From the IMG/VR virus record IMGVR_UViG_3300023117_001979: a stretch of 64,000 nucleotides of DNA, one strand, 5' to 3'. Positions 42,301-57,311 of the stretch are shown here, piece after piece; positions within the stretch are counted from its first letter, which is position 1, and each line of letters opens with the position of its first letter. Below the pieces are notes generated by a model, which ran no database searches, was not told the DNA's origin, and saw nothing but the letters and a program-made list of their open reading frames with translations. A program made the position numbers and the translations under genes. The DNA is from an uncultured virus (IMG/VR IMGVR_UViG_3300023117_001979) (lineage: Duplodnaviria; Heunggongvirae; Uroviricota; Caudoviricetes).

Positions 42301-45285
42301 TCAGACTGGGGCAAAGTAGCAGGGCTTTCACCTCAAGAAGCAAAGGACTGGAACAACATCAAGAGTGGCAGAGTCAGTGGTCGTCGCATTCTCAAAATGC
42401 GTAAAAAATTAGGCCTAACTGGCCCAAAGGACTACATTGACCCTAACAAACCTAGAATCCTAGAAGACTACTATGAGAAAGCACTCAACAACTGGACTGG
42501 TCCAAGTGACGATATGCAGAAGGGTGAAACTGACTGGGACTGGTGTAAGCGTCAAGTACGATTCAACAAGCGCTTCATGGGTGATGTATTCGGTGAACGC
42601 AAAGGGCCACTTGTCAGAAAACAAAAGACACAAAATCAACCTTCCCGTCGTTTGCTTTCTCTTTGGGTTTGGGGCCACGACCCCTGGCGCTACGCACGAA
42701 AGGTCGAGAAGCGCGAGCGAATGCCTAAGTGTCCTAGTGTACCTTGGGTAGGAATGACCGAGAAGCGCAAGTGGGGAGTAATCGAAGTCATTCCTGGGCC
42801 TAAGAACAAACCAAAGAAGAACCCAGCATGGCCCGAAGAGTGGCAGAGTAATCCGTATGTGACCCTCATTGAGCCCTGGACAGGCATGGAGGTCATGATT
42901 GATGAAGAGATAGCTCCACTTATTCAGGCGATGTGGGGCAAAGATATTCAGACCATTAACAGCAATCAAGCGACAAGTAGTTGGGGCTACATTGCCGTTA
43001 AAGGTAGCTTTGACAAAATTAAAGCTGTGGTACCTGAAATGGAGCTTCATCAACCAGCCATGCAAGTAGAAGTTGACCACGGAGTTCAGACAGCATTGAC
43101 AGAGAAAGCAAAAAATGACTTTAGGAGCAAAGGCTACATCGCTTTGGTCAATGTAAAGAAAGGAGCCTTCTCAGAACATCCAATTATGGGGCCCATGTGG
43201 GACACTGACTATCTCATACTCTTCACAAAGGAAGGACAAAATGCACTTCACACTGCTTTCGGTATTCCACTACCTAACCCTATGGTACGAGTCAAGAAAG
43301 ACGAGTATCGCTCTTACTTCATGGATGAAGAAGGAAATGATTTGACTTCTATTCCATTTGAAAGCGTCAGCTTCACCGCAGGCCAAAATGTAGCTAACTT
43401 TGGAGAACCCATGACAAGGAAAGAGGCATTAACTGAGCGGGAGGGAACCTGGTGGAGAGTGAATGTTTCCGCATACAAAGGCCGAAAACCAATTATTGAA
43501 GTGGCTCCAATTAAGCATTTTACAAGCCCTGGAGAATATAATAGGTTCGTGACCAGGGGGCGTACCTTTTACAAAAATTTCTCTATGGAGGGACCAGTGT
43601 TCCCTACAATGCTTACTCACATGGCACAAGAGCCATCAGCTATCTTGATAGTACAAGGGGACTTGAAGAGTTTTGGCGAAGAAGAATTAAGGTCTGACAT
43701 TACTGATTGGAAAGGAGTCAGTAAAGGTGAAGGCAAGCTTCCTGTTTACGAAAGCGGCGAAATAGTCGCAGTGGATTCTGAGCAACTGATGGTTACTTTC
43801 ACTCCTGTTAAAAACGAGCTAAGGGTAGAGGCACACATCGTAAATCACACCAAGAATGTTAGTGAACAAGTCTCTGTGCTAAGGTTGGAAGATAGGGGAG
43901 ACCATTACTGGCTTCACGAAATTCAGGTTTCGCCAGAACACCGAGGACAAAATTGGTTTAGGTGGGGGGTAGAAACAATGTTGTTCAACTTGGTCGACCG
44001 AATCCCTGACTACCCTAACAAAAAGCCTGTCCGTACACTAGCACGAGTAGTCGAAGGTATTCCACAAAAAGAGCTAGTTAGAGTCCTTGAAGAAACTGGG
44101 TTCAAGAAGATAGAAGAAGTTGATGGCGGGGTTTTGATGGAATTCGATTACCACTTATTCGAAGAGGTCTTTGCTAACCCATCCCACACTCCTTCTCGCT
44201 CTAATCCACCAACGCCCCATGACGGGGACGCTATCATCACAGTAAATGAAGTACCCTGGGGCACACAAATAATTGCAGAATGTCCATTTGATGGAACAAA
44301 GTGGGCAGTGGACTCATCAATGGAAGATGCTTGTAACCATATTTACCCTGAATGTGGCCATGTTCTAAGAATCAATCCTGACAAGCCATGTTGCTGTGAA
44401 AACTCAGAACATCCACCAACACACCCCGACCACTGGCCCAATACTCGTGATAACCCCCCCATCATTCCGATTCACCATGCCTACCATGCTACCCCAACGC
44501 GTAATGTGCCATCAATCATGAAAGAGGGGCTCCGTTTGTCTCACTATGAAAGAACAAAAATCGAGCCCGCCGTGTATCTGACCTATACCGAAACGCAGGG
44601 GCGAAAGATGGCAAAATGGAGGGAAGAGAAGAGCGGGGAAGAGCACACTGTTCTCAAAATCGACCTCGCCACCTTCACGAATGAGGATGTTGGTGCGGAG
44701 CCTTGGGAGTATGATTCTTTCCCGGTGTTAGACCAACGAATGAAGGAAAACATCACAAACACAAACCAACTGATGATAACCCGACCTATCCCCCCTGAGT
44801 TTATCGAGGTCTTGGAGAGAGTAAACCCTCGTACAAAGAAGGGTCGTAAGTTTCCTAGTAAGTACCTCAAAGGTCTAACCGCTACGGAGAAAGCTATTGC
44901 CAAATACGAAATAGACAAAGGCTACGAATACAGCATGGATGACCCTGAAGCATACAAGTTTTGGAAGTCTGACATTAAAGCAAAGGCGAGGGGCATGGAA
45001 ATTCTCCCCTCTAAGTGGCGAAACAAGTTTGCTCGCAAGTATGGACCTCTCAAAGACGGCTATGACTTCCTAGACAGAATGAGTAAAACAACGGGCATTA
45101 AGAGAAAATACCTGAAGAAAATCCAAGACAAGGGCCTAGCAGCATGGAGAATTGGACACCGACCTGGAGTAACTCAAATGCAGTGGGCTAGAGGAAGAGT
45201 GTATGCATTCGTAATGGCGGCACCTTCATCAACAGCTCCAGGTAAGCCTGACCATAAACTGGCAGTGGAAGCAGGGGTGAGATGA
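39307..45285 (+). CDS. Giant NP-delimited polyvalent protein: JAB, HD-like, guanylate kinase, DUF3140-like, GNAT-like, ADP-ribosyltransferase-like and DUF5824-like domains
   Basis: FYHTHP..SADD; LYHDIAK..HMAD; ISGPSGGGKS..TTRPKR..YYG; LVNMKNKEL..SGRRI..WGHDP; IQVSPEHRGQ; AYHATP..SIMKEGL..VYLT..IPPEFI; GLAAWRIGHRPGVTQMQWARGRV. Confidence 0.85.
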   Translation: MMMMSSRVEIILDNTPFPGAGQQIGGYEVIESMLDIDGKNWAVYLKGKLNQAQAKLALKDLTNKHHVLPVQDEFSLVSFKSKGMLHARTNPPGDVTVVRGHMYYARPNPITTSDFHNEMNEMLIDNPEKHFTRYTVKTTEQLHDRLWKGVSYAGESYGWKRGDDLWHRRASFIMPKIKINKALEGATMFYHTHPAKDEPSLTSADDIQFYLDLHFAWGIKSFYTIMKHKLDHFTITSKAGGKEKYLRMEEEAFIDTVDGMIEEGEKVAKKEVGNDRPEIEFQNRITKEMVDLFNKKFKSIAKISFRPKAKNPASKLARKPSNNPIAALVNPAPNPPIKVDDRFVAKALDELKGLDYAHEHYGADEYGHTMYVYWWLKHHLAPTTQFPKGRLWKLNEYGMDSDTRKKLRAYLSQPVLGNYNYMDIVYLLALYHDIAKLREKGVKETGWEIGAEMFRNEIGPEIGLPSKLTEDIAFLLDTDVGRKGITDKDFLTQAGDYYGASKLLHMADMITHHPTMYKGGDSMKQELMVNFIDQLRDFLDHHYVIPNPPPQVATLKWVADYGISDLYYEEVDELLGVFHQSVVPDNDGKTKSAEDRSSGGHLYRLRFNSSLVPGLTRYYAGNLALSSSKLVIDVGAPVPDDLGKADANLIYRAVGERLKESYPELVIEEVEPESLVNPRHANKIQVISISGPSGGGKSTVLRYLNKHIPDSSTPPTFTTRPKRPTDGADRRFVSKTTFKKMIEQGQFVEYTVSGAGHYYGRRFKDFYGKVAIIEVSLDGKKHYESRFANVFSVYLDPDPSITEEERAKAIYKRGGLTKEEAKRRAKIATETVERSKKMQFDLRVTMMKGKYEDGAKKVLSEIPLVNPASTFMLLEEPFRPAQLDLDGNLLPLTPLQLNRNAQIRTYNTRQQDAYNAGTHIPWTMAHRSDFPVNAILPPAWFHDLVKGVKYGLVPANIVNTVAPIESWGNPSKKELFDWFEDWVKLVNMKNKELKTFLDSDWGKVAGLSPQEAKDWNNIKSGRVSGRRILKMRKKLGLTGPKDYIDPNKPRILEDYYEKALNNWTGPSDDMQKGETDWDWCKRQVRFNKRFMGDVFGERKGPLVRKQKTQNQPSRRLLSLWVWGHDPWRYARKVEKRERMPKCPSVPWVGMTEKRKWGVIEVIPGPKNKPKKNPAWPEEWQSNPYVTLIEPWTGMEVMIDEEIAPLIQAMWGKDIQTINSNQATSSWGYIAVKGSFDKIKAVVPEMELHQPAMQVEVDHGVQTALTEKAKNDFRSKGYIALVNVKKGAFSEHPIMGPMWDTDYLILFTKEGQNALHTAFGIPLPNPMVRVKKDEYRSYFMDEEGNDLTSIPFESVSFTAGQNVANFGEPMTRKEALTEREGTWWRVNVSAYKGRKPIIEVAPIKHFTSPGEYNRFVTRGRTFYKNFSMEGPVFPTMLTHMAQEPSAILIVQGDLKSFGEEELRSDITDWKGVSKGEGKLPVYESGEIVAVDSEQLMVTFTPVKNELRVEAHIVNHTKNVSEQVSVLRLEDRGDHYWLHEIQVSPEHRGQNWFRWGVETMLFNLVDRIPDYPNKKPVRTLARVVEGIPQKELVRVLEETGFKKIEEVDGGVLMEFDYHLFEEVFANPSHTPSRSNPPTPHDGDAIITVNEVPWGTQIIAECPFDGTKWAVDSSMEDACNHIYPECGHVLRINPDKPCCCENSEHPPTHPDHWPNTRDNPPIIPIHHAYHATPTRNVPSIMKEGLRLSHYERTKIEPAVYLTYTETQGRKMAKWREEKSGEEHTVLKIDLATFTNEDVGAEPWEYDSFPVLDQRMKENITNTNQLMITRPIPPEFIEVLERVNPRTKKGRKFPSKYLKGLTATEKAIAKYEIDKGYEYSMDDPEAYKFWKSDIKAKARGMEILPSKWRNKFARKYGPLKDGYDFLDRMSKTTGIKRKYLKKIQDKGLAAWRIGHRPGVTQMQWARGRVYAFVMAAPSSTAPGKPDHKLAVEAGVR

Positions 45286-45767
45286 TGGAAGCACGAGAGT
45301 ACCCAAGCTATACCGTAATAGGTGTTAGTGGAAATATTGCTATTGCTACCTTATCCCATAACGAATGGGTTGAATTTGTAAACGGCCAGCTAAATGCCGA
45401 AAACCGAGAATGGTATTCAACGCCTACAATGCGCCAAGTGCATAATTTTACTGGGAGAGGTTATTTTCCAAGAGGGATTACGCTCGGTGATGAAAGTGGC
45501 GCTTTAATTGTAATAGATGGCACCTATGCTAATGATGAGCGTCTTCTTGCTCATGAGTACGGTCATGCTCTTGGACTTGGTCATACTTCTTATCCTACTA
45601 CAATGAACCCAGTTAGTCACATGAGACTGTTTGATTCAGAAGGCCTCATTCCTAAATTTAGGCAAGCATTCCCTGAACTAGCACAGGCAGTAAGAGAAAG
45701 GAAACCAATACAAATTCCCACTGCACTGCTCACAGGTGCCTTTTTGTTTTTCTTTCTCAAGGGCTAA
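45282..45767 (+). CDS. Zincin (metzincin-like) metalloprotease with C-terminal membrane anchor
   Basis: AHEYGHALGLGH (HExxHxxGxxH) and Met-turn-like TMNP; hydrophobic tail. Confidence 0.85.
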   Translation: MMEAREYPSYTVIGVSGNIAIATLSHNEWVEFVNGQLNAENREWYSTPTMRQVHNFTGRGYFPRGITLGDESGALIVIDGTYANDERLLAHEYGHALGLGHTSYPTTMNPVSHMRLFDSEGLIPKFRQAFPELAQAVRERKPIQIPTALLTGAFLFFFLKG

Positions 45768-45797
45768 GCTTTTCTTCGTCGCGTACCTGCGAGTATC

Positions 45798-46526
45798 ATG
45801 GTAGCTAAGCGGTTGCTCGATAATATCAGTCGGCGCCATACAGCAATCGTTGGACAAACTCGTTCAGGTAAGACATATGCTACTAGGTTCATTCTAAAGA
45901 AACTCCAAGCTCAAGGAATACATACTATCTTCTTTGACCCTAAGCACGATGACGATTATGCTGACTTAGGGGTAATCTGCTACACCCCTATGCAAGTATA
46001 TGCAAAGCTGCTTTCTAAAACATCTGCAATTGTTTACCGACCAAACCCGGAAAAGAACAAGAGGTTTGAAGAACTGACACGCGTCATTAACTTGACATTT
46101 GAAGTCTCAAAAACAAGGGGCTACCAAAGAATAAAGAGAGTCTTTGCTATTGACGAAGTACAATTAATGGTAAAGAAAGGTGGAAACGATGGAATTGAAA
46201 GGCTATGGACAGTAGGAGCAGGTCAAGGAATCTTAGGGCTAGCGATTACTCAGCGTATTCAGTTACTAAACGAAACAATTTGGTCTCAGTCAGAAAACAA
46301 GATTCTCTTCAAAGTCGAAGACCGACCTGAATACCTTCGTTCACGCAATCTTGACCATTATGCGGAGTTACTTCCCTTTTTCCAGGCTCCTGAAAATAGG
46401 TACTGGTTTTACGCCACCGTAGGTGACGGCGTTTGGAAAAAGCACCCTCCTGTTGGGGAAAAGGAAGAAAATACCGACAGAAAGAATAACCTAAGGCGGC
46501 TACGCTTATCACGATGGCAGTCTTAA
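45798..46526 (+). CDS. FtsK/HerA-superfamily ATPase, probable A32/P9-like genome-packaging ATPase
   Basis: IVGQTRSGKT Walker A, IFFDPK, FAIDEVQ Walker B, ITQR; 242 aa, the size of packaging ATPases of tailless icosahedral viruses. Confidence 0.8.
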   Translation: MVAKRLLDNISRRHTAIVGQTRSGKTYATRFILKKLQAQGIHTIFFDPKHDDDYADLGVICYTPMQVYAKLLSKTSAIVYRPNPEKNKRFEELTRVINLTFEVSKTRGYQRIKRVFAIDEVQLMVKKGGNDGIERLWTVGAGQGILGLAITQRIQLLNETIWSQSENKILFKVEDRPEYLRSRNLDHYAELLPFFQAPENRYWFYATVGDGVWKKHPPVGEKEENTDRKNNLRRLRLSRWQS

Positions 46527-47140
46527 TTACCATCCCGCATGGTTCCACCCCCAATGGTGATGGAGAACATAATAGCGACATAGGAGCATTAGAATTCCTT
46601 TCTTACTTAGAAGAAGCACTAAATGATATAGACATTCCTTTTACCACTCTTATAGGAAAAACAAACCGAGATATTCTAGACCTCAACAGACTTCGCGCCC
46701 ATTCACATCCATGGGTAAAAGAAGTAAGGAAAGAAATGTTAAAGGCAGAAATTCACATAGATTTGCATTCATTTCCATTTTATGAAGAGCCAACTAAAAC
46801 TAGTACAGGCTATTCACTAGATGTATGGGGGCGATTTGATGTTGTATTGTTTAATACACCTGAGATTACAGACCAAGTGTTCCTAAAGACTATTGAAGCT
46901 GAACTAGAAGAAATGAGTATAAGGACAGGAGAAGAGCAGGGTGGCTTTGAGAATTACATTAGCAATATGGCTACTGTACTATTTGACCTTCCTTCATTAG
47001 TAATAGAAATTAACGAGGCGGCTGGCCAAAATTATCCCCAGGTGGCCTCGTCCCTGGCGGTGGGAATATTGAACCACCTTGAGTACCTTTCCGAGCCGCT
47101 TCCTCTAGACGACGAGCCTCTTCCTGTTGAATACGCATAA
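46514..47140 (+). CDS. Zn-dependent hydrolase, N-formylglutamate amidohydrolase/M14 carboxypeptidase-like
   Basis: LITIPHG, DLNR, HIDLHSF, LVIEIN motifs. Confidence 0.65.
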   Translation: MAVLITIPHGSTPNGDGEHNSDIGALEFLSYLEEALNDIDIPFTTLIGKTNRDILDLNRLRAHSHPWVKEVRKEMLKAEIHIDLHSFPFYEEPTKTSTGYSLDVWGRFDVVLFNTPEITDQVFLKTIEAELEEMSIRTGEEQGGFENYISNMATVLFDLPSLVIEINEAAGQNYPQVASSLAVGILNHLEYLSEPLPLDDEPLPVEYA

Positions 47141-47309
47141 TATGAGCTACATGTTGCCTAAGTAACTGCAAAGCCCAAGCTACTGCATGGCTTCGACTTT
47201 GAAACACCCTATGCTGAATCCCTTGGTCCATGAAGTTAATATCGTTCATGTCCAGGGTAATAGAAATTGCCTGCTTCCTCAGCTTATCGCGCTCAGGGTG
47301 CCGGGCCAT
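47010..47309 (-). CDS. Ribbon-helix-helix (CopG-like) transcription regulator
   Basis: KQAISITLD...FMDQGI...FQSRSHAVAWAL. Confidence 0.7.
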   Translation of the reverse strand: MARHPERDKLRKQAISITLDMNDINFMDQGIQHRVFQSRSHAVAWALQLLRQHVAHIMRIQQEEARRLEEAARKGTQGGSIFPPPGTRPPGDNFGQPPR

Positions 47310-47444
47310 TAGTAAGGGGCATTATGTCTATGGTTATGATACTTGGGATAGTAAAGTAAAGTATCTATCTATGTGATTCTATCATATACTATCACAGGGG
47401 CCTTTATACCCTAGTGCTCGATGCCCCTAACACAGGTGGCGGAA

Positions 47445-48467
47445 ATGGCTCTCCAAGAATTGGTGATTGTCAATCCTAAAAGGAAAAGTCGTCGAGCCGC
47501 CACAACCAAAAGAAAAAAGGTGAATACAATGGCTCGTCGAAGAACAACCCGAAGAAAAACTGCCCCAAAGCGTCGCGCAACCACTCGTCGACGCACGACC
47601 ACAAAGCGCCGCGCTGCGCCAAAGCGCCGTCGTACTACTCGTCGCAAGACGACTACTCGACGCCGCGCTGCACCAAAGCGCCGTCGTACTACTCGTCGCA
47701 AGACGACTCGACGCCGTGCTGCACCAAAGCGTCGCCGCACGACCCGTCGCAAGTCAACGACCCGTCGTCGTCGTAGCCCAGCTCGTCGCCGCAAGACGAC
47801 CCGCCGTCGTCGTCGTAGCCCAGCTCGCCGCAAGACGACCCGCCGTCGCCGCCGCAGCCCAGCTCGCCGCAAGACGACCCGTCGCCGTCGCCGCAGCCCA
47901 GCTCGTCGCCGCACGACCCGTCGCCGCACGACCCGTCGTCGTTCCACCACTCGCTCTCGTAAGATGAGCATGAAAGGAATGTACAACTTCATCATGAACA
48001 ACATGACTGCTTTCGAGGCTATCGCTGCTCTCGGTGTCGGTCTTGTTGCTGGTCTCAAGCTCCCTGCTCTTGCTGAGAAAGCTGTTGCTAAAGTCATGGG
48101 TCGTACCATCACTCTTACTGAGGGATGGAAAGGACCTCTTGTCGGTGCTGCCCTCGCTGGTGCTCTTGGCTACTCGCTCTATGGAATGAAGCTTGTCAAC
48201 TTCAATGTCGCGTCCACCATCGCTCTTGCTGGTGCAACCGTCGGTATGTTGAACCTTGCTAACACTTACCTTAACCTCCCACTTCCAGGTGTGGCTCTTA
48301 TGAACCCATCCGGTAGTGCTGGTTTCGGCTTCTTGGCTGGCTCTAACACGCTTCACGACAATGTCAGTGCTTTCGGCTACCTTGGCGAAGCCCCATTCGA
48401 ACCTTTCGGTATGACTGATGGCTCCCACGGTTACCATGACATGGGCCGCGTCGTCAATGTTTTCTGA
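47445..48467 (+). CDS. Protamine-like Arg-rich core protein with C-terminal membrane domain
   Basis: TTTATA box at 47403 and AGGTGG RBS favour ATG 47445; about 150 aa of R/K/T/S/A/P repeats, then hydrophobic helices. Confidence 0.8.
   Translation: MALQELVIVNPKRKSRRAATTKRKKVNTMARRRTTRRKTAPKRRATTRRRTTTKRRAAPKRRRTTRRKTTTRRRAAPKRRRTTRRKTTRRRAAPKRRRTTRRKSTTRRRRSPARRRKTTRRRRRSPARRKTTRRRRRSPARRKTTRRRRRSPARRRTTRRRTTRRRSTTRSRKMSMKGMYNFIMNNMTAFEAIAALGVGLVAGLKLPALAEKAVAKVMGRTITLTEGWKGPLVGAALAGALGYSLYGMKLVNFNVASTIALAGATVGMLNLANTYLNLPLPGVALMNPSGSAGFGFLAGSNTLHDNVSAFGYLGEAPFEPFGMTDGSHGYHDMGRVVNVF
47530..47960 (+). repeat. Coding tandem repeats (RRRAAPKRRRTTRRK x3; RRRRRSPARR(R)K/TT x4)
   Basis: Imperfect tandem nucleotide repeats built from CGT/CGC codons. 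Confidence 0.85.
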
Positions 48468-48476
48468 GGTGAGCGT

Positions 48477-48662
48477 GTGAACGCTTACCGTAGCAACTTT
48501 GGCGCTGCACATGACCCATACATGGATGGCTCAGGCGGCATTCTCGATGGCGACAACAAAGTGATGAACACCCTCAACAGAGGAGTCTATGCGGGCTTCG
48601 ATGTTGGCCACATCGCTCTTGCTGTTGCCGGGCTTGTTGTCTTCATGAAGCTCCGCAAGTGA
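48477..48662 (+). CDS. Small membrane protein
   Basis: GAGGTGA RBS; C-terminal TM followed by basic residues. Confidence 0.7.
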   Translation: MNAYRSNFGAAHDPYMDGSGGILDGDNKVMNTLNRGVYAGFDVGHIALAVAGLVVFMKLRK

Positions 48663-48735
48663 AACTAGGCTAAGCCTAGTGGCGTTGGCGATACCAATAG
48701 AGCGTAAGCTCTAGAGGCCTCCTAGTGCCTTGCCG
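48663..48735 (+). other. Multi-hairpin element
   Basis: ACTAGGC-TAA-GCCTAGT, TTGG-CGATA-CCAA and TAGAGC-GTAA-GCTCTA hairpins in tandem. Confidence 0.6.
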
Positions 48736-48758
48736 ATTGCTTTATGACTTGAGACTTA

Positions 48759-49628
48759 TTGGGAGCACTGATAGCGATGCCGGAATATACACCCCCTGGT
48801 TCAAGTGGCACCATTGATGGAACACTTACCAGTAATCGTATTCCGTTTGCATCCGACAGTGACACGCTGACAGATGATGCCGACTTTACCTATGACTCAA
48901 CAAATGACTTACTACAAGTCACTAAGACTCTCACGCAGGTCGTCGTTGATGTTCATAACGCGACAGGCAGTGCGATTGCGGCTGGAACGCCAGTCTATGT
49001 GACGGGAAGCGTAACTGCAAACAAGCCCAATGTTGAGCCATCTGATGCCGATAATGCAAGCACGATGCCCTCAGCAGGTATTGTCACAAATCAAATTGGC
49101 GCGGGTTCCGCTGGCTATATGGCAATTAGCGGAGTAATCAATGGTATTTCATTATCAGTCATCACGGATGTTTCTCCTTCTGCGGGCGATACTCTTTATG
49201 TTTCCACGACCACTGGAGAACTCACGGTCACAAAGCCAACAGGGGCAACCTCACAAATCCAGAATGTCGGTCGAATTATCAGCACCAACGGCGGAAATTT
49301 CAGAATGACGGTCAATAACATTGGCCGAACAAACGATGTTCCTAACCAATTTCAAATGCGAAGCGCACTAGTGGTAACTGATAATTCTAACCCAGGCGCT
49401 TCTGCTGCGGATTCAGGTAAATACTTCTATCGAACATCAGGTGCAACATTTACCCTACCTGCTGATTCTTATATTGGTGAACAATATGTGTTGCTTAACA
49501 ACACTGGAAGTGCGGTAACTATTGCTTCGACAGGTGGTGACACTATTATTGGTTCCACTTCTATCGATGACGACAAAGCAGCAACTATTGTTTGCGTTGC
49601 AGCAAATACTTGGTTTGTAGTAGGTTGA
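48759..49628 (+). CDS. Beta-rich spike/fibre-like virion protein
   Basis: Thr/Ser/Gly-rich; NATGSAIAAGTPVYV, GDTLYVS..GELT, TLPA..GEQY..N, TWFVVG patterns typical of viral fibre domains. Confidence 0.65.
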   Translation: MGALIAMPEYTPPGSSGTIDGTLTSNRIPFASDSDTLTDDADFTYDSTNDLLQVTKTLTQVVVDVHNATGSAIAAGTPVYVTGSVTANKPNVEPSDADNASTMPSAGIVTNQIGAGSAGYMAISGVINGISLSVITDVSPSAGDTLYVSTTTGELTVTKPTGATSQIQNVGRIISTNGGNFRMTVNNIGRTNDVPNQFQMRSALVVTDNSNPGASAADSGKYFYRTSGATFTLPADSYIGEQYVLLNNTGSAVTIASTGGDTIIGSTSIDDDKAATIVCVAANTWFVVG

Positions 49629-49632
49629 TACT

Positions 49633-50082
49633 ATGCTACCTACAATGGTTGGTTGCGCTCAACAAGGGTCAGGCTCTCCTCTAGCAGCAACGGTTAGTAC
49701 ACCAAGCGACTTACTAATACCAGTCTTTGCGGATTCTTCCCCAGGAACGACTTCAGCAGCAGGCGAGATAAGCTCGACTGTTACGGCCAGTGGGGGAACC
49801 CCACCCTATGTTTACTCATGGTCTCTTTCTGAGGAAGGCGATGATGAGGATGGCTTTGACATAGCAAGTCAAGGTAGCCCAACAAATCAGACCACCTACA
49901 ACACTGCTACCATTTCCACCACATTTACCAATCCAAGCCCAGCTCCACCACCTGCCCCACCGCCATCTCCCCCACCTGCGGCGGCAACATACAGGGTCAC
50001 ATGTCAAGTGACAGACCAAAATGGTGCAGGCGATACGGTGTCTGCTTACCAAGACTTTACGGTAGAGGCTGTTCCAGCATGA
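49633..50082 (+). CDS. Ig-like beta protein, putative spike accessory
   Basis: TASGGTPPYVYSW and YRVTCQVTD motifs. Confidence 0.6.
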   Translation: MLPTMVGCAQQGSGSPLAATVSTPSDLLIPVFADSSPGTTSAAGEISSTVTASGGTPPYVYSWSLSEEGDDEDGFDIASQGSPTNQTTYNTATISTTFTNPSPAPPPAPPPSPPPAAATYRVTCQVTDQNGAGDTVSAYQDFTVEAVPA

Positions 50083-50264
50083 TGTTACTTTATAGCTGAG
50101 TAAAGTAAGCCACCATAATCTTTGAATACACCGAGCTCGTGCTTTGGCTCGCCTGGGAGGAACGAGGATAAACAGGTGCTTCCAGGTGGGTCTCTTTCCT
50201 TCTCACCCCTCCACACCTGCCTCACCCTTTATCTTTATAGTCAGACTGAAACTCATACAGTTTC

Positions 50265-50444
50265 ATGGCAAGCGTACTAGCCCAACTTGAAGAAATTGCA
50301 GAACAACTAAATGAACTCGCAGCTGACGCAGCAAAAGTCGACAAAGGACAGAAAGCTGCTGGCACTCGTGTGCGTAAGGGATTGCAAGATGTTAAGAAAG
50401 CATGCGACTCCCTTCGAAAGCATATCTTGACCCTTCGAGAGTGA
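50265..50444 (+). CDS. Histone H1-like protein Hc1 N-terminal domain homolog (59 aa, not in ORF track)
   Basis: Own translation: MASVLAQLEEIAEQLNELAADAAKVDKGQKAAGTRVRKGLQDVKKACDSLRKHILTLRE; GxKAAGTRxRK signature; TTTATA box about 30 nt upstream. Confidence 0.75.
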   Translation: MASVLAQLEEIAEQLNELAADAAKVDKGQKAAGTRVRKGLQDVKKACDSLRKHILTLRE

Positions 50445-50449
50445 GATTA

Positions 50450-50650
50450 TTGACTGATGGTCTTTATCACATAGTGATAGGTGACACCGTCAGCGACCTT
50501 ATTCTCAAAGTCAACCATATGATGGAAAGTGGCTGGGTCCCGCAAGGTGGTGTTTACAAAGAGCAAGGTAGGCACATACCTCTCACCGCTATTGTATGGT
50601 ATCAAGCCATGATTCGACCACTAATAACAAATCAAGCCCTTGTAGTGTAG
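50450..50650 (+). CDS. DUF1737-like small protein
   Basis: Likely TTG start at 50450; LKVNHMMESGWVPQGG...YQAM pattern; 3' end overlaps the tRNA. Confidence 0.55.
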   Translation: MTDGLYHIVIGDTVSDLILKVNHMMESGWVPQGGVYKEQGRHIPLTAIVWYQAMIRPLITNQALVV

Positions 50651-50712
50651 CTTGGATAACACTCTGGCCTGCGGAGCCGGTACCCCAGGTTCAAATCCTG
50701 GCAGGGGCGCCA
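50636..50712 (+). tRNA. tRNA-Arg (anticodon GCG), with encoded CCA
   Basis: Acceptor GCCCTTG/CAGGGGC, D arm GTGT/ACAC, anticodon arm CTGGC-CTGCGGA-GCCGG, T arm CCAGG-TTCAAAT-CCTGG, ends GCCA. Confidence 0.92.
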
Positions 50713-50714
50713 AC

Positions 50715-50927
50715 CTACAATAGTAGCGTAAGCGCATTTCCTAATAGACCAACTGCAATTAGTACTTGAGTAATATACCACCTTCGGTCGATTTTATCCA
50801 CCGTTTCTTTTGTCATCTGTTTGACTTCTTCTCGAATAAGGTCAATCTTTTCATTAACGCTATCACTTAACTCGACCTTCATGGTCATTCCTTCGGCAAT
50901 AAACCGAGCTGCATCAGCCATATTCAT
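50715..50927 (-). CDS. Small protein with C-terminal TM
   Basis: Coupled to the upstream RHH gene; hydrophobic tail. Confidence 0.55.
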   Translation of the reverse strand: MNMADAARFIAEGMTMKVELSDSVNEKIDLIREEVKQMTKETVDKIDRRWYITQVLIAVGLLGNALTLLL

Positions 50928-51148
50928 TAAAATGTCACATCCGGTCGTGAAGTGTTAAGTCGATTTAGTTTGGCTACCACATCTTCTTCTAAGAGCGTAA
51001 GCTTACCCTTAGTATACTGAATGAGGATAGAACGAATGTAAGTGGCTAAAGCCAGGCCGTTCTCATCTGCTAGCAACTTTAGTTTTTCAAAAACCTCTTC
51101 ATCCATGCGAATTTGGACTTGCTGGTTCTTGCTCATAGTAACAACCAT
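50927..51148 (-). CDS. Ribbon-helix-helix DNA-binding protein
   Basis: QVQIRMDEEVFEKLKLLADENGLALATYIRSIL. Confidence 0.75.
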   Translation of the reverse strand: MVVTMSKNQQVQIRMDEEVFEKLKLLADENGLALATYIRSILIQYTKGKLTLLEEDVVAKLNRLNTSRPDVTF

Positions 51149-51267
51149 GCTTTCATGGCGACCTTAATGGTTTCTAGTGGTAGTCGTTTGAAAAGAATAA
51201 AAATACAAAATTATACGAAGTAAAGAAAAGTAATGATAGTGATATTATTTGCTACTCAAGTAAATCC

Positions 51268-51284
51268 ACCCCTTTAAGAGGGGT
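51268..51284. promoter_or_regulatory. Inverted repeat enclosing a TATA-like box upstream of the capsid candidate
   Basis: ACCCCT-TTAAG-AGGGGT in an AT-rich divergent intergenic region. Confidence 0.45.
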
Positions 51285-51355
51285 AGCCTCTTAGACCTAA
51301 TCAACCGCAACACAAGAAACGCGGGGATAACAAAAAACAATGGAGATGAACAAAC

Positions 51356-51967
51356 ATGGAACTACGACCATATTATGACCGACCAATTAGCACGATTGAT
51401 GCATATGTTACCGAGATTCTCGGTGCAGTTGCTGCGAACTTCCGCCACTGGGGCGAATACAAGTATGTGTGGCCTAAGCAAGGCTACGGTAAGGGTGTTC
51501 TCCGCGCTGACCAATTCTCACTCTTGGGAACCTTCGGACAGTGGCTCGTTCCTTCGTCCGGCTCGTCCGGTAACCCCAACTCAGTGACTGTTGACTCCTA
51601 CGGCTGGGCTCAGCGTGTTTTGGACTTCAAGACCCTTGAGGAATTCTACTACCTCATCATGGGAATCCAATACCCTGTTTCTCCCCTCCTGATTACGGAA
51701 CACCAATGGCGCATCTCAGGTGTGGAAACGCCTGTCATCGACCAGCAGCTCTTTGAAGTGCTAGAAGAACCATTCGTTTGGTATGAAATGCCCGTGATTG
51801 TCGAGCCAGAGAAAACAATCGTCTGTGCTCACCGCGTCGTCGGTGGACTTGCAAACTACGGTAACTCGACCATCGCTGGTGCTGAGAAGTGGCGTGTGAT
51901 TGGTTCAGTCATTGGACAACACCACGAATTGATTCAGCAGCGTCAAAGCATTGGGGAGCTTAGCTGA
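51356..51967 (+). CDS. Candidate single jelly-roll major capsid protein
   Basis: 203 aa, beta-rich; LRADQF..W..IMGIQY..P..ITE..WRISG..WYEMPVIVEPE..IGSVI resembles single jelly-roll MCPs of SH1/P23-77-like viruses; GGAGATG RBS and strongly biased codon usage. Confidence 0.55.
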   Translation: MELRPYYDRPISTIDAYVTEILGAVAANFRHWGEYKYVWPKQGYGKGVLRADQFSLLGTFGQWLVPSSGSSGNPNSVTVDSYGWAQRVLDFKTLEEFYYLIMGIQYPVSPLLITEHQWRISGVETPVIDQQLFEVLEEPFVWYEMPVIVEPEKTIVCAHRVVGGLANYGNSTIAGAEKWRVIGSVIGQHHELIQQRQSIGELS

Positions 51968-52011
51968 TTCCCTTACGGGACTCAGAAATTCTACTACGGA
52001 GGTGAAAAGAT

Positions 52012-52797
52012 ATGGCAACAATTGCAGGAATGGACCTGGGATATGGTTCACAAGTCAAACTAGTCCGCACCAACTACCTCGTTATCCGTGTGGGTAACGG
52101 TGTAACTGCTGCTACCACTATCAACCTTACCGCAGCTGCAAACTTCTTGAGCATTGTTCAGAACAAATTCCACGGCCAAGTGTGCCGCCCTGACTACATC
52201 GTAGTTACTGGTAGCACCGCCGCTGCTGGTTCTTATGCCTTGACCAACGCAGATTTGCACCCGAATGTTATCGCTAACACGAGCACACTACCAAGCGCCG
52301 CAAATACTGCTGCTGCTGCACCTGGTCCTGTGCCTCTTGCAGGCCCAAGCCAAAGCGCTCTAGCACAAGCAAGCGGTCTTCCAGCAGAAGCCAACACTGC
52401 TGCTGAGAACCTTGGTAACCCGAAAATCCAGGCTATCCTGAATGTCGGTGTTATCGAGTTTACTGCTAACACTCTTGCTGCTGGTCTAGTTGTCGAAGGT
52501 GTAGGTACTGCTGCTGACGCATCACAATTGGCTCACGCTAACTTGCTTCTTGATGCTGCTGCTGACATTGACACCAATGGTGACGCAATCCGCTTGGCTG
52601 ACCTTGATGCTGCATTCACTGATGCTCTTGGTGCTATTACTGCGGCAAATGTTGTCGACATGACTGATGCTAACTTGCTTGCTTCCTTCGTTGAAGTCGG
52701 TAATGCTAGCGGTACTACTGCTACGGAGCTCACTGATGTTTCCATCGGTGCTAACTCTTGTGCTCTTGTCAGTGCTGTCGCATTGGTTACAGTCTGA
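52012..52797 (+). CDS. Ala/Thr-rich structural protein, probably highly expressed
   Basis: Perfect GGAGGTGA RBS, biased codons, co-transcribed with the capsid candidate. Confidence 0.7.
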   Translation: MATIAGMDLGYGSQVKLVRTNYLVIRVGNGVTAATTINLTAAANFLSIVQNKFHGQVCRPDYIVVTGSTAAAGSYALTNADLHPNVIANTSTLPSAANTAAAAPGPVPLAGPSQSALAQASGLPAEANTAAENLGNPKIQAILNVGVIEFTANTLAAGLVVEGVGTAADASQLAHANLLLDAAADIDTNGDAIRLADLDAAFTDALGAITAANVVDMTDANLLASFVEVGNASGTTATELTDVSIGANSCALVSAVALVTV

Positions 52798-52799
52798 GA

Positions 52800-52990
52800 C
52801 CAGCAACGGTTTGAAGGTGACTTGCTTACCCCCATGAGCGTAAGCTCTAGGGATAGTACAGGAAGCTCGATTGCTAACCTCAGTGCATACGCGTTTGAAG
52901 CAAAACAGTAACTAGAGGCTAAACACCCCTAGTAGCGTAAGCTCTAGCCGATAGGCACTAAGCATAAGCGAGCAGTACCCTATCCAAAGG
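52800..52990 (+). ncRNA. Candidate structured RNA or DNA-hairpin element
   Basis: GAGC-GTAA-GCTC, AGC-GTAA-GCT and GCC-GATA-GGC hairpins, ACTAG..CTAGT stem, long-range GGATAG/CTATCC pairing. Confidence 0.4.
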
Positions 52991-53062
52991 GGTTATATCC
53001 TTGTCTAGCCTGGGAGTAACTAGGTCCGCCCGAAGGCGAGCCACCACCACACACAAACAAAG

Positions 53063-54028
53063 GTGAAAATTATGACGAATGCAAACCAAACAAACAGGCC
53101 AGGAAACTTGTTCGGTACCCCCTTCGGTGCCGGATATGGAAATAACGGAATAGAATACGCCCTTAAGCCAGGGTACATTGTTAAGGCACGAAATAACTTC
53201 TATGTTATTGAAGCTCGTGAAGCCTTGACGGTTGACCTTTTCTTTAGCGAAACACACTCGCTTTCTGCCAGTGGTAACCTCATCACTAGCGCACCGCTTG
53301 TTCGCTACGGTCAAAACTCAATCACCGCTTTGATGAGCCCCAACCACGGTGGGACTGTCGTCACCGGTGATTTCACTTCTTCCGTCTTGAGCCCTTCGTT
53401 TGACTCAGGCTACATCAAGTTTGACGATTTGGAACCTTCATTTGGGCACTTGTATCAACTTTGTCCAACTTTGCCCTTCCAACCCAAGTTTATTGACGCA
53501 AATGGTGAATTCCTGATTGATGATGCTGCTACTGGGACCGCTACTGAGCTTCCTTCAAATGGCGGTAGTCCAGTTGGGTTCGAAATTCAAGGAGGTACTG
53601 CTAGCGTAATTACCGCACCTGTTGGTACTGTTTCCGCAAAGCTGTACATCAAGCACCCCGTTGGTTCTCCAATCAATGTGCTAGACCAAGCCCCTGAAGG
53701 TGATTCAGGTTCCGCCGCTGTCGGTTCTCTTCTCGGTCTTAGCGGTTTCTTGGACTATACTATGAGCCCAATTGAAAACCCTAACTGGAATTACTCCTTG
53801 TTCATCGAGCATGGAGAGAATAACCTTCCTAGCTTCAAGTTGTGCAACGACTCAGAAGAGTACATCCTCGATGGCCGTGTGCGCTTGACTGGCTGGAAGT
53901 ATTCCATCGCTGAGTTGAGCATGAGCCAGTTGTCAGAATTGCAGTCTAAAGGAAAGGTTACTTACGCAGTAATTAACCCACAGGGAATCCCAACCTCTAG
54001 TAGCTTGAGCGGCCCCTTCCTAAAGTGA
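53063..54028 (+). CDS. Beta-rich structural protein, candidate second capsid protein
   Basis: 321 aa, biased codons, own promoter-like AAAGGGGTTATAT at about 52986; terminal VRLTGWKY strand reminiscent of jelly-roll ends. Confidence 0.5.
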   Translation: MKIMTNANQTNRPGNLFGTPFGAGYGNNGIEYALKPGYIVKARNNFYVIEAREALTVDLFFSETHSLSASGNLITSAPLVRYGQNSITALMSPNHGGTVVTGDFTSSVLSPSFDSGYIKFDDLEPSFGHLYQLCPTLPFQPKFIDANGEFLIDDAATGTATELPSNGGSPVGFEIQGGTASVITAPVGTVSAKLYIKHPVGSPINVLDQAPEGDSGSAAVGSLLGLSGFLDYTMSPIENPNWNYSLFIEHGENNLPSFKLCNDSEEYILDGRVRLTGWKYSIAELSMSQLSELQSKGKVTYAVINPQGIPTSSSLSGPFLK

Positions 54029-54040
54029 GGAGGCCTTTAA

Positions 54041-55231
54041 ATGTCTGACGAGCAGTTTGTGTACTTGGGGAATCTAACCTCCGAAGTGTCACGAAAGGCA
54101 TCTATTGTTCGTGAAGATAAGCGAACAGTTACAGTTCGTCAGTCAGGGTTGAGCCTAACTTCCAAAGGAGCCGGTAGCACTCTTAGGTTAGTTGACCAAA
54201 AAGGAAAGGGTCGACTGCTAAGCATTAAGATTGTTACTGACAACCCATATGCTCAATTGGTTCTTGAGATTGATGACTGGCGTAATGAGGGAGAAACTGC
54301 GGCTGAGCTACTCTATGGTGGAACCGGCAAACAAGACTACGGCTTGTATGCTATGGGCGGAGGCAACCCTGCTACGGGATATACACTAATGTACACCCCT
54401 ATGGGCGGAGAGGCATTCGATGGCAAACTCCGTATTTTCTTGCGCAACCGACTGCCTACTACAAATGCAGTCTATGGTAACGCAGACCGAGTTAGTTTTG
54501 GAGGAAACCTACCTATCCCAGTAAACAATGGTCATTCCGGTGGAGATTCTTTTTCAGCCCCTGCCCTTGCTAATGAATCTCTTACTGATATTGCAAACGC
54601 TATGGCTACTCCTCACTTTGGAAAGCCTTACATTTCTAGCCGAATCAATTCAGCCGCACTTGGAGCTACCACTAAGGTTGGTATTGACCACCCGTATGTA
54701 GGACAAGCAGGGAAGCCAACATTCACTAACGCAAGCCTTTCATTTGCTATGAATGGTGCAGGGACACTAGACACAGTACATACTGCATTTATAGGCCCCC
54801 GTACTGCAAGTGGTGGAAATTCATTCAGCCAAGTAATTTACTTTACTAATATTGCTGATGATGCACTAGGAGTAGTAACTCACAACTTCGCTTCGGGCCA
54901 AAAGCTGTTTATTAGAGATGGGGGCACCATTTACTTTGCAGGCGAGGTCACTAATGTCGACCTGACTTCCGGTGATAACCTAACTGCTACTGGAACAGAT
55001 TTACCAAGTGGTACATTTGGTGAAGTACTCACTGGCGCCTCGCAGGTTAAAGCATTACAAGTTACAGTTTCCCCAGGAATTGAAACCCCACCAGGCCCTA
55101 TTACCTCATCTTATACCGGCAGCACTCCTGATGGCTTCGGTACTGTTGTTAGTGCTGCTGAAACAGACCCAGTTATTGCTATCAAGTCTATTGAAATCAA
55201 ATACCAATTGGAGGTAAGTTACGATGGCTAA
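54041..55231 (+). CDS. Beta-rich structural protein (penton/vertex candidate)
   Basis: GAGGAGG RBS; Gly/Thr-rich. Confidence 0.6.
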   Translation: MSDEQFVYLGNLTSEVSRKASIVREDKRTVTVRQSGLSLTSKGAGSTLRLVDQKGKGRLLSIKIVTDNPYAQLVLEIDDWRNEGETAAELLYGGTGKQDYGLYAMGGGNPATGYTLMYTPMGGEAFDGKLRIFLRNRLPTTNAVYGNADRVSFGGNLPIPVNNGHSGGDSFSAPALANESLTDIANAMATPHFGKPYISSRINSAALGATTKVGIDHPYVGQAGKPTFTNASLSFAMNGAGTLDTVHTAFIGPRTASGGNSFSQVIYFTNIADDALGVVTHNFASGQKLFIRDGGTIYFAGEVTNVDLTSGDNLTATGTDLPSGTFGEVLTGASQVKALQVTVSPGIETPPGPITSSYTGSTPDGFGTVVSAAETDPVIAIKSIEIKYQLEVSYDG

Positions 55232-55904
55232 ATTCAAACACCCAGTAGTACAATGGGCGCACGAACACCCAGTCTTGTTTGCTCTTTTTGGCACGACTAT
55301 TTTCTTTTACATGCCTGCTAGGCTAATTGGTAAAACAATTCGCACTGCTAAATACGGAGACCCATCACTAGGCAATCTCCCAGGGTTAATGTCCGAAGAA
55401 GAAAGAAGTCGCTTTACAGGGACAGGAGTTTCAAACATTCATCAGCTTGGTGCTATTCCAGCTCCTTCTGATGGCCCAATTACTGGTGGTGCTTTGTTCC
55501 GTGCTATTCACGAAGAAATGTGCGATAGAGCAGAAAAAGGAGAAATTCCACGAGAACATGTTCAATACTTTACCACTGCTAAGTACAACAAACTAATGAA
55601 CGACGGTCAATACAATATTGTAATCAAGACTGCACCCGGCCCCGACCAAGGGTATAATTCAGGTGACTTCTATCGTGACTCTCGACATAATCAGAAGATT
55701 TACCCATCTAAGTCCCCATACAATCCTGATAAGTCACAACGCGACCACCGTGAAGGAGGGAGTATTGCACCACCTTATGCTGGTAAACTATACAGTGAAC
55801 ACTCTTCTTCTCCTGGCTCTTTTGCTGTTAGTTCTTCAATGAAAGACCTTCTTGGAGAAAACAGTGTCTTTGCTGGCCTAGGTGCATTAGAAAAACTAAG
55901 GTGA
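55224..55904 (+). CDS. Putative virion membrane protein
   Basis: N-terminal TM after EHP; SLGN, QLGA, GLGA motifs. Confidence 0.65.
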   Translation: MAKFKHPVVQWAHEHPVLFALFGTTIFFYMPARLIGKTIRTAKYGDPSLGNLPGLMSEEERSRFTGTGVSNIHQLGAIPAPSDGPITGGALFRAIHEEMCDRAEKGEIPREHVQYFTTAKYNKLMNDGQYNIVIKTAPGPDQGYNSGDFYRDSRHNQKIYPSKSPYNPDKSQRDHREGGSIAPPYAGKLYSEHSSSPGSFAVSSSMKDLLGENSVFAGLGALEKLR

Positions 55905-55908
55905 TTAA

Positions 55909-56718
55909 ATGAAAATGCATAGCGACTTAGGAAAGATGTATCGCCGTAACTACATGGTGAAGTCTCAACTTAACTCGCTGGAAGCAAAGAGTCGTGCATT
56001 GAATGAAAAGATTGGCGACCAAACAAAAATAGACGAGTGGGCGGAGTCTTACATCACTCGTGCTGACGCACAAATAGATGATGTTCACGACTACATGAAC
56101 TTCCGCAATATTGCTAGCCTAGGGCATGTGCGTATGAGACCTCAAGTCACAATGGCCCTACCAGCCCCTAAGCTTCCTGTATATGGCCAAGAGCGAGTCC
56201 CAGCTGACGAAGTACCAACCCTGCAACCCGAAAGCTTGCCTCCTGGAACCACCGAGCTTCTCAACACCCTTTGGAAACAGTACAGAAGTGGTATGCTTGC
56301 AGACTCCAACAACGACTCAGAAGTAGTGTCTCTATTAGGCCAAATAGAAGCCTATATCCGAAAGGAGAAACTCACAAGAGATAGTATTGACAAAGACCAA
56401 CATAAGTCTGTTATTGGGCCACTTATTCAGCGAATAGCTCAGCGTATTAGCGAACTGGAAGGAGTTGACAACTTAGGTTGGACAGAAGCCCTTCCTCAAG
56501 TCGGTTTGTGGAATACATTTGGCTCCGTATTGACATTGGGACTTATGGGTGCTACCTATGGAGTTATTTCCTATGATGAATACCAAAATAAAGGAAACAT
56601 GTGGGCTATGTGGAAGCCTCGTCTAGAAAATGCCGCCTTTTATGCAGGTATCGGGGCTCTAATTGCAGTAGGTTATCAGGGAGTAGTAGGAACAGGACAA
56701 TGGACAGGTGGTTACTGA
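55909..56718 (+). CDS. Putative virion membrane protein with N-terminal helical module
   Basis: DLGK...SLGH...NLGW segmentation; two C-terminal TM segments. Confidence 0.65.
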   Translation: MKMHSDLGKMYRRNYMVKSQLNSLEAKSRALNEKIGDQTKIDEWAESYITRADAQIDDVHDYMNFRNIASLGHVRMRPQVTMALPAPKLPVYGQERVPADEVPTLQPESLPPGTTELLNTLWKQYRSGMLADSNNDSEVVSLLGQIEAYIRKEKLTRDSIDKDQHKSVIGPLIQRIAQRISELEGVDNLGWTEALPQVGLWNTFGSVLTLGLMGATYGVISYDEYQNKGNMWAMWKPRLENAAFYAGIGALIAVGYQGVVGTGQWTGGY

Positions 56719-57311
56719 TGCTTCCTAGCAGAAAAGAAATGATGAGCTATTGGTTTGAACATCCTATTGCAGGCAGTTTGATTGCATTTGGTATGGTTGA
56801 AGGCATAAAAACTGTATGGGAATCTCTAGTGAATCCTAAAGGAAGTAGCCCATTCAGTACTTACTCCGATGTAAGAAGTGGCTATATTCTAGATGAGCTA
56901 GGACACGGCGGCCAAGCTGCTAATTTAGTCGAAGCCGAGCTTCATCACGCTCAGCACTACAACAATCACAAACCTGCCGTTTCACTAGGCTCCACTTCGA
57001 CAACAACTTCCACTTCTTCTGCTCACGGGGGAACGGAGAAGGTTCCAACTGGTTCAACATGGGACAAGCATAACTTTGCTGGAGAAAGGCCTGTTATGTT
57101 TGGTGGACCAAAGCACAAGGGTTCAGTACTAATGGGGCCTCCTTCTATGCGTCGTCGCATCTCTTTGAACTCAATTACTCTAGGAGGCCTCTCTAAGGCC
57201 CCTCAAGAGCTTGGAAAGGAAGAAGAAGCCCTACCTACTAGTGAACACTTTGGCTTGCTAGGAATGATGCCTGAGCAGTCAGATGATGCAACAGACAACC
57301 CATGGGTGTGA
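56718..57311 (+). CDS. Putative virion membrane protein
   Basis: Likely start ATG 56718 overlapping the upstream TGA; N-terminal WFEHPI plus hydrophobic stretch similar to 55224; many [LFM]G motifs. Confidence 0.6.
   Translation: MLPSRKEMMSYWFEHPIAGSLIAFGMVEGIKTVWESLVNPKGSSPFSTYSDVRSGYILDELGHGGQAANLVEAELHHAQHYNNHKPAVSLGSTSTTTSTSSAHGGTEKVPTGSTWDKHNFAGERPVMFGGPKHKGSVLMGPPSMRRRISLNSITLGGLSKAPQELGKEEEALPTSEHFGLLGMMPEQSDDATDNPWV

Follow-up and report, generated by a model that had tools for sequence, protein, structure and literature searches.

A tRNA-Arg gene whose anticodon covaries with the arginine codons of a protamine-like gene in a family of marine archaeal viruses

Introduction

Phages and giant viruses can bring along their own tRNA genes (see PMC3673656; 10.1101/2020.07.06.190819). 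In T4-type phages, chloroviruses and prasinoviruses, such tRNAs fit the codons of late or structural genes. The codons that they read are enriched in highly expressed viral genes, which has been understood as a boost to translation. A similar arrangement is described here for a stretch of 64,000 nucleotides from an uncultured virus (IMG/VR record IMGVR_UViG_3300023117_001979), in the following called the window, which is part of an approximately 140-kb virus of marine archaea and in which the only tRNA gene, a tRNA-Arg with the anticodon GCG, lies downstream of a gene for a protein with a poly-Arg domain. Unlike in the phages and giant viruses, a single tRNA for one amino acid is involved, the carriers are archaeal viruses, the match concerns mainly one poly-Arg gene, and a related lineage has switched the codons of that gene and the anticodon together.

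Other known systems resemble this locus in part. In the silk gland, the supply of tRNA-Gly and tRNA-Ala is adapted to fibroin, and the likeness lies in an isoacceptor supply that is tuned to one repetitive, compositionally extreme and mass-produced protein; however, the silk gland is a case of cellular gene regulation, whereas the tRNA gene described here is part of the viral genome and, within the clade of the window, is found 2.2 kb from the gene that would consume its product. The adenovirus proteins VII and mu are protamine-like or core proteins that condense viral DNA. Compared by description, they share with the protein of the window a long arginine tract without acidic residues and a gene in the structural block, but the protein of the window has in addition a hydrophobic C-terminal domain, which suggests an attachment to an internal membrane. 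Like in the case of the tRNA integration sites of archaeal viruses and plasmids, as far as these are covered by the part of PMC8371274 considered, a tRNA-Arg is part of a mobile element and, in most lineages of the family, has a site-specific recombinase for a neighbour; in contrast to such sites, the gene is full-length and conserved, its position in the genome varies, a tyrosine integrase was not found in the related records searched, and no segment is identical to a host tRNA beyond the ordinary conservation of the T arm.

While tRNAs that are matched to late-gene codons are already known, it is new that a single tRNA, which is always a tRNA-Arg, is paired with a protamine-like gene in archaeal viruses and that the two have undergone a matched switch. 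No report of this tRNA-codon pairing was found in the literature, as judged by titles and the openings of abstracts, supplements aside, and the word 'arginine' is absent from the main texts of PMC5434244, PMC10160649 and PMC11706807 (again supplements aside).

Arginine codons of the poly-Arg gene

The features on which the comparison rests are the following:
47421..48467, + strand: Arg-rich gene, 348 aa, an open reading frame (ORF) whose N and C termini are conserved in all relatives
47529..47963, + strand: poly-Arg domain, aa 37-181, with 70 Arg, 13 Lys, 33 Thr and zero acidic residues, net charge +83
47964..48464, + strand: C-terminal Gly/Ala-rich domain, aa 182-348, from a Kyte-Doolittle scan, conserved across lineages
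50636..50712, + strand: tRNA-Arg(GCG), 77 nt, found by ARAGORN and Rfam, with A20, C35, G36, discriminator G and encoded CCA
51356..51967, + strand: A2, 203 aa, the most conserved late gene, non-repetitive, with 74-100% protein identity across the family

The arginine codons of the Arg-rich ORF are 32 CGT, 34 CGC, 6 CGA, no CGG, 3 AGA and 1 AGG, so that CGT and CGC together (CGY) account for 66 of 76 (87%), in comparison with 438 of 1059 (41%) in the 57 other ORFs of a greedy non-overlapping gene set of the window, in which CGA contributes 24%, AGA 13% and AGG 17%. For this difference Fisher's exact test yields p = 2.6e-15, with the 76 codons not being independent of one another, as tandem repeats copy their codons. 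The repeats, with units of 39 to 54 bp, extend from 47538 to 47938 and encode arginine runs of up to five residues; within this stretch 59 of 66 arginine codons are CGY, and outside of it 7 of 10. Threonine codons of the same ORF show no such effect (ACY 65%, background 62%), and also lysine and serine are without a comparable shift. The codon bias is specific to the Arg-rich gene and to arginine. An earlier reading of the window from its letters (the sequence-only reading) had described the repeats as encoded mostly by CGT and CGC, with free use of CGA, AGA and AGG in other genes, and had considered that the bias might equal the genome background; the description holds, and the CGY share of the gene is 87% where the background has 41%.

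As to the protein itself, its true start may be the methionine at 47445, as judged from relatives that begin with MAL.E..IVNP. The C-terminal domain contains hydrophobic segments at aa 191-219 and 258-277 and is probably a membrane anchor, and the whole protein would then condense the genome or tether it at an internal membrane. No Pfam or PHROGs family matched the protein. In every relative, its gene has the packaging ATPase on one side and the conserved late genes on the other. Arg-rich ORFs can also be read in antisense over the repeats (e.g. 47411-48112, -); these are mirror artefacts of the CGN repeats and were rejected because only the + frame keeps the conserved N and C termini across lineages.

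Codon class and anticodon across the family

Across the family, 39 distinct and near-full-length Arg-rich genes could be compared, which fall into these classes:
CGY-type (at least 75% CGY): 26 genes
CGG-type (at least 55% CGG): 5 genes
AGA-type (at least 55% AGA): 1 gene
mixed (no class criterion reached): 7 genes

For 15 of the 39 genes a tRNA is found on the same DNA, and there is no mismatch: 14 CGY-type genes occur with a GCG anticodon, one of them with an additional UCU tRNA, and one CGG-type gene occurs with a CCG anticodon. This last gene belongs to G004, a complete related genome, and runs across the ends of the contig. Counted from its annotated start, it has CGG at 49 of 69 arginines (71%), and over the whole open frame at 51 of 74; the background is 204 of 2473 (8%), and the enrichment in the Arg-rich gene has p ~1e-35. 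The other G-ending codons are not raised in the gene (ACG 5%, CCG 8%, TCG 5%, GCG 12%), and the shift to CGG is no general third-position bias.

The class is maintained while other sites change. Between two CGG-type genes, 35 aligned arginine positions all stay CGG, whereas synonymous differences are seen at 63 of the 237 non-Arg residues that are identical, and between two CGY-type genes arginine remains within CGY, whereas 91 of 207 identical non-Arg residues differ synonymously. Where arginine positions are aligned across the two types, they comprise 33 CGG/CGC and 7 CGG/CGT pairs. It is shown by these comparisons that anticodon and codon class covary across the family, with a statistical weight of two lineages, because the members within a clade are not independent. 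Within the CGY-type genes, the ratio of CGT to CGC tracks the GC content of the genome, which ranges from 40 to 57% across the family (G005 56.5%, G006 52.5%, window 45%, G007 40.3%), with A2 still 74-100% identical.

The tRNA genes

ARAGORN finds exactly one tRNA in the window, the tRNA-Arg(GCG) on the + strand, which scores 55.6 bits against RF00005 (gathering score 29), and an Rfam scan of the 64 kb gave nothing else above any Rfam threshold. The two programs agree with the earlier claim that the sole tRNA of the window is an intact tRNA-Arg(GCG), and also the distance of about 2.2 kb to the Arg-rich gene was given correctly, being 2,169 bp from the end of the ORF. In the D loop, which has the sequence AGCTTGGATAA, G18 and G19 are followed by an A; A20 in this loop is an arginine identity nucleotide of tRNA-Arg, and together with G34, C35 and G36 it predicts a tRNA-Arg that reads CGU and CGC. 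The cloverleaf is kept across seven viral copies with compensatory changes in 9 of 23 consensus pairs, which shows that the viral tRNA is real and structurally conserved, and from its sequence it looks full-length and functional. By eye, a CTTTAT-like, TATA-like box can be recognized about 25-30 nt 5' of the tRNA in 8 of 13 copies, which is the usual location of an archaeal TATA box; in the window clade the tRNA has no CTTTAT-like box and directly follows an ORF.

Every tRNA found in the family is a tRNA-Arg. The records G001, G002, G003 and G006 contain one tRNA each on the whole record, with the anticodon GCG, the bounded record G008 has one GCG match, and the tRNA-Arg(CCG) of G004 is the sole tRNA on that complete genome. 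No tRNA was detected in G005 (52% complete), G007 (44% complete) or seven contigs of 4-12 kb. Among 80 metagenome loci, 26 carry 27 tRNAs, namely 26 with GCG and one with UCU. The latter belongs to a locus of the window clade (L129 3864-4020), where GCG and UCU tRNA-Arg genes stand in tandem, 6 nt apart, the UCU gene behind the GCG gene; their T arms are identical and their D arms nearly so, and from the sequences this looks like a duplication that was followed by a change of the anticodon.

The position of the tRNA differs between lineages. In G001-G004, G006 and G008, it is found 21-29 kb downstream of A2 and 0.5-2.2 kb from a gene for a serine recombinase of about 290 aa (PF00239 + PF07508). 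In the window clade, all 23 loci that include 1.4 kb or more upstream of A2 have it in the interval from the Arg-rich gene to A2, the nine loci of the clade without a tRNA having at most 1.07 kb there, and the same position is seen in L148, L157 and L159. The proximity of tRNA and recombinase (examples are L021 3007-3873, -, and L013 11609-12499, +) persists across recombinase identities of 26-34% and both anticodons, with varying order and orientation. A scan based on the recombinase added records only of lineages that were already known; the loci L188-L198 have distant recombinases, their membership in the family is doubtful, and among them a tRNA-Arg is present only in L189, which is G006, and a tRNA-Ala in L198.

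A2 as a second late gene

As A2 is non-repetitive and conserved, it serves as an independent test of the relation. In the window, 7 of its 9 arginine codons are CGY. In the CGG lineage, the A2 orthologs have 15 CGG among 30 arginine codons, with 5 of 10 in each of three distinct sequences, as compared to 3 of 224 in the CGY lineages. Among the called genes of G004 with at least 5 arginine codons, A2 has the highest share of CGG (50%), in a gene list from which the Arg-rich gene is absent owing to its position across the ends of the contig. In the tree of A2, the CGG clade is nested inside CGC-type lineages with support of 95/90 and 96/86. The AlphaFold model of A2 was unusable (mean pLDDT 35.4).

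Parts of 47300-52000 are contained in 24 metatranscriptome runs. Contigs of four runs were placed on 42000-61999, with mean word depths taken from three of them (X1-X3); the depth of contigs is a poor measure of expression, and RNA libraries may contain DNA. With this limit, the mean word depth is 63-135 for 48036-49600 (from the 3' half of the Arg-rich gene through the two ORFs that follow it) and 104-330 for 51332-52833 (A2 and the next gene), while it is 2-10 for 50004-51337 and at most about 25 in most flanking bins. This unevenness hints against a simple carry-over of DNA. One contig in one run spans the tRNA at a depth of about 10 and is uninformative on its expression either way. In all four runs RNA contigs start at 51332, 24 nt 5' of the start codon of A2, which may be a transcript start.

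Proposed role of the tRNA and alternatives

It is probable, if well short of certain, that the viral tRNA-Arg is co-adapted with the arginine codons of strongly biased late genes and that the poly-Arg protein is its main consumer. The block of particle genes encodes a protein with a poly-Arg domain of 145 residues, which would condense or anchor DNA, and a hydrophobic C-terminal anchor. The viral tRNA would enlarge the pool of one isoacceptor during late infection, and in a protein needed in many copies, runs of up to five arginine codons of the same class would no longer cause stalls over a host tRNA in short supply. This presumes that the tRNA is expressed, charged and limiting and that the poly-Arg protein is abundant and binds DNA, and either the codons or the tRNA may have changed first. 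The viral demand is seen under both anticodons, with 87% against 41% in the window and 71% against 8% in G004, and A2 is shifted alike. The sequence-only reading had proposed that the virus supplies the very tRNA that its poly-Arg protein drains; this core stands and has gained the observation that the anticodon follows the dominant codon without exception in 15 genes, but it had to be refined, as also the codons of A2 match and as the fragment G005 shows no tRNA.

Several points weigh against co-adaptation. The Arg-rich gene of G005 uses CGY for 54 of 61 arginines (89%), yet its fragment of 72.8 kb contains no tRNA and includes the recombinase locus where relatives carry theirs. The locus L129 has a tRNA-Arg(UCU), but its Arg-rich gene has four AGA codons only. 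There is a single codon-anticodon switch with a known tRNA, that of the G004 clade, and concerted evolution of tandem repeats can propagate a single codon even in the absence of selection. The tRNAs of the seven mixed genes and of the AGA-rich gene (48/81) were not found; a scan of viral contigs with the D arm of the family and the other four arginine anticodons gave zero matches, and a protein from the end of G007 matched G007 alone. Finally, CGY is the commonest arginine class also in the viral background (41-53%), and a GCG tRNA would therefore help many genes.

This last point leads to the alternative that the tRNA compensates a genome-wide difference in arginine codons between virus and host, as proposed for many phage and giant-virus tRNAs, without any special link to the Arg-rich gene. 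In the window, the latter contains just 66 of the 504 CGY codons of the gene set, and further late genes are rich in CGY (51356-51967 with 7/9, 52012-52797 with 4/4 and 53063-54028 with 4/6), in line with the large share of CGY in the background of the GCG-bearing genomes. The tRNA of G004, however, reads a codon that makes up 8% of the background as compared to 71% of the Arg-rich gene and 50% of A2, where a tRNA serving the whole genome would be expected to match AGA (28%) or CGA (22%), and all tRNAs of the family are for arginine, which forms 22% of the residues of one protein, so that general compensation appears rather improbable. We give a very slim chance to a mere coincidence of repeat history, in which the codon of a founding unit was amplified and the tRNA is an unrelated passenger. 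It would fit an arginine domain that consists of tandem repeats with nearly all of the CGY codons, but the codons outside of the repeats and the non-repetitive A2 are of the same class, the class is kept while other synonymous sites diverge by 27-48%, and a tRNA, always a tRNA-Arg, is present in every sufficiently long record but one. Bacterial defences that target tRNAs are known, as are phage tRNAs that escape them, and the tRNA could likewise replace a host tRNA-Arg that is cleaved by an anticodon nuclease or lost in host shut-off; the restriction to arginine fits a single targeted tRNA species, but such a counter-defence would explain neither that the anticodon goes along with the codons preferred in one or two viral genes nor that this preference differs between close relatives, and it is very unlikely.

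The tRNA could also be a site of integration or recombination (an attP or the target of the serine recombinase), its anticodon then mirroring that of a tRNA gene of the host. The recombinase is close to the tRNA in six records with both anticodons, and at its 3' end the tRNA of the window shares 26 identical nt with an intron-bearing tRNA in the cellular archaeal genome G082. A large serine integrase, though, would be longer than the about 290 aa of this recombinase. The tRNA gene has its full length, its stems show compensatory changes, and in most lineages it has its own TATA-like box; in the window clade, L148, L157 and L159 it is a neighbour of the Arg-rich gene, and the 64 kb of the window contain no recombinase. 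The sequence-only reading had taken a 3' half identical to a host tRNA, combined with an integrase elsewhere, as the mark of an attP; the tyrosine integrase family PF00589 is absent from all five related records, one of them a complete genome, and the exact stretch is limited to the 26 nt, of which 23 are shared with tRNA-Gln genes and represent ordinary conservation of the T arm. Over most of the tRNA the best cellular match reaches only 81-82%. Magrovirus group D, to which the virus probably belongs (see below), is enriched in the cellular size fraction according to the part of Xu et al. 2023 (PMC10160649) considered, which would suit integration. An integration site does not predict any codon bias of late genes. 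This explanation is highly unlikely, with a small probability left to a recombination role by the serine recombinase that recurs beside the tRNA.

Co-adaptation could also go further than a mere supply. It is possible, though we consider it unlikely, that one codon class forms a private translation channel that gates the bulk synthesis of a potentially toxic poly-Arg protein and of the main late gene. The host would read the class poorly (CGG is 8% of the arginine codons elsewhere in G004), and bulk synthesis would set in only once the viral tRNA has accumulated from its own promoter, which would amount to a timing switch of the bldA type in a virus. Such a channel could be re-assigned: a lineage nested among CGC users would have moved both genes to CGG, with its CCG tRNA in the same genomic slot.

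Archaeal decoding and the host

A tRNA with G34 that reads both CGU and CGC is typical of archaeal decoding, whereas most bacteria use ICG, and on this basis an archaeal host had been proposed from the anticodon. A pattern of the D arm and the GCG anticodon has 33 matches in 185,579 species genomes, 32 of which are in archaeal records and the 33rd on a contig of the window's own virus family that was mis-binned in a Flavobacteriales metagenome-assembled genome (MAG). These matches of the 5' half of the tRNA, together with an MCM helicase, an archaeo-eukaryotic primase and a thermosome in the window, support an archaeal host and thereby the earlier proposal. The Flavobacteriales-labelled contig (G016:C22, with L069 and L097) has 100,964 bp and contains A2 (E = 1.9e-140) and a tRNA-Arg(GCG) that is identical to the one of G008.

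BLAST searches with the tRNA, one of them against 151 genomes from the same phylum as a marine archaeal MAG, gave no cellular match above ~81-82% identity along most of its length. The intron-bearing tRNA mentioned above (L205 155-258, on G082:C5, a cellular archaeal genome of ~0.7 Mb) scores 45.3 bits with Rfam and was missed by ARAGORN; it belongs to the Arg(GCG) type in its 5' half. The tRNA-Gln genes that share 23 of the 26 identical nucleotides are from the same phylum. The match may point to the host lineage or be ordinary T-arm conservation.

The virus and the surroundings of the locus

Further features of the window are these:
65-1354, - strand: archaeo-eukaryotic primase (Pfam)
2217-4655, - strand: MCM helicase (Pfam)
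25017-29780, + strand: very large ORF, 1,587 aa
35814-39332, + strand: very large ORF, 1,172 aa
39307-45285, + strand: very large ORF, 1,992 aa
45798..46526, + strand: packaging ATPase of the FtsK/HerA type (PF01935, 4.8e-08; phrog_2666, 'terminase large subunit', 1.1e-16)
50265..50444, + strand: Hc1-like, histone H1-like ORF, 59 aa (PF07432, E = 3.3e-15, 56.1 bits with a cut-off of 23.5)
50715..51148, - strand: two small antisense ORFs just 3' of the tRNA (ORF list)
50715-50927, - strand: the first of these, a 70-aa protein with a hydrophobic tail (ORF list)
50927-51148, - strand: the second, a ribbon-helix-helix (RHH) protein (RHH hits below the Pfam cut-offs; phrog_582, Arc-like, 3e-05)
62623-63999: group II chaperonin (thermosome; Pfam)
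elsewhere in the window: a Rad52-like protein, and a DNA ligase domain and a guanylate kinase domain, the latter inside the 1,992-aa protein (Pfam)

The packaging ATPase is 25-26% identical to those of the membrane-containing haloarchaeal viruses SH1 and HCIV-1, and due to this neighbour the Arg-rich gene can be assigned to the block of particle-building genes. The three very large ORFs upstream of the ATPase embed guanylate kinase, DUF5824 and DNA ligase domains, with a single weak hit to a tape-measure family. The ORF at 50265-50444, which precedes the tRNA by about 190 bp, matches Hc1, a chlamydial histone H1-like family that condenses DNA; its product is a candidate for a second DNA-condensing protein beside the poly-Arg protein, and BLAST tables gave no homolog of it in G001-G007. 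Between the antisense ORFs of the window and the ORF next to the tRNA of G003, one BLAST run gave a match of 37%, which was absent in another.

In the relatives from IMG/VR, the ATPase is 51-64% identical to that of the window, and a metagenome scan with the A2 protein yielded 387 relatives from marine and estuarine assemblies. One of these hits, a contig of 135,676 bp (L099), has the A2 protein of the window and agrees with it in the codon counts of the Arg-rich gene and in the spacing of the tRNA; it is probably the contig from which the window derives. An exact pattern of 40 nt from the end of the window had no match among viral contigs, and a megablast of 44000-64000 against a phage collection gave no hit. 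The complete genome G004 has 140,336 bp with a terminal repeat of 55 bp, is syntenic with the window and encodes PolB (PF00136, 2.3e-28), a thermosome (PF00118, 1.6e-134), a resolvase (PF00239, 4.7e-26) and an Rpb1 domain 2 (4.7e-26). The latter domain is located at G004:C1 41301-42014 (-) and G006:C1 34964-35530 (+), in ORFs of 1,671 and 1,621 aa, and the family thus encodes its own large subunit of RNA polymerase. Philosof et al. 2017 (PMC5434244) describe magrovirus group D by marine contigs of 110-140 kb that encode PolB, a thermosome, a resolvase and subunit A of RNA polymerase. All four genes are present in G004, and the thermosome is present also in the window, so that by its gene content, as distinct from a sequence comparison, the virus of the window probably belongs to magrovirus group D.

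The shared traits are a marine element of 110-140 kb with PolB, thermosome, resolvase and the large subunit of RNA polymerase. In the sections considered, the papers on group D mention neither a morphogenetic block nor arginine, codon usage or a group D tRNA, and they leave the status of group D as a virus open, with no morphogenetic genes known (PMC5434244; Xu et al. 2023, PMC10160649; PMC11706807, 2025). The packaging ATPase, the candidate genome-condensing protein and the strongly represented late genes add weight to the view that magrovirus group D is of viral nature.

Significance

Virus tRNAs are usually explained by genome-wide codon statistics, and such explanations can rarely be tested cleanly. 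The family described here is a natural experiment, as each genome combines one tRNA-Arg with one dominant consumer gene, and as in one related lineage the codons of two late genes and the anticodon have changed together. It makes the hypothesis of supply and demand directly testable, and for the AGA-rich type L176 (48/81 AGA) this hypothesis predicts a tRNA with the anticodon UCU.

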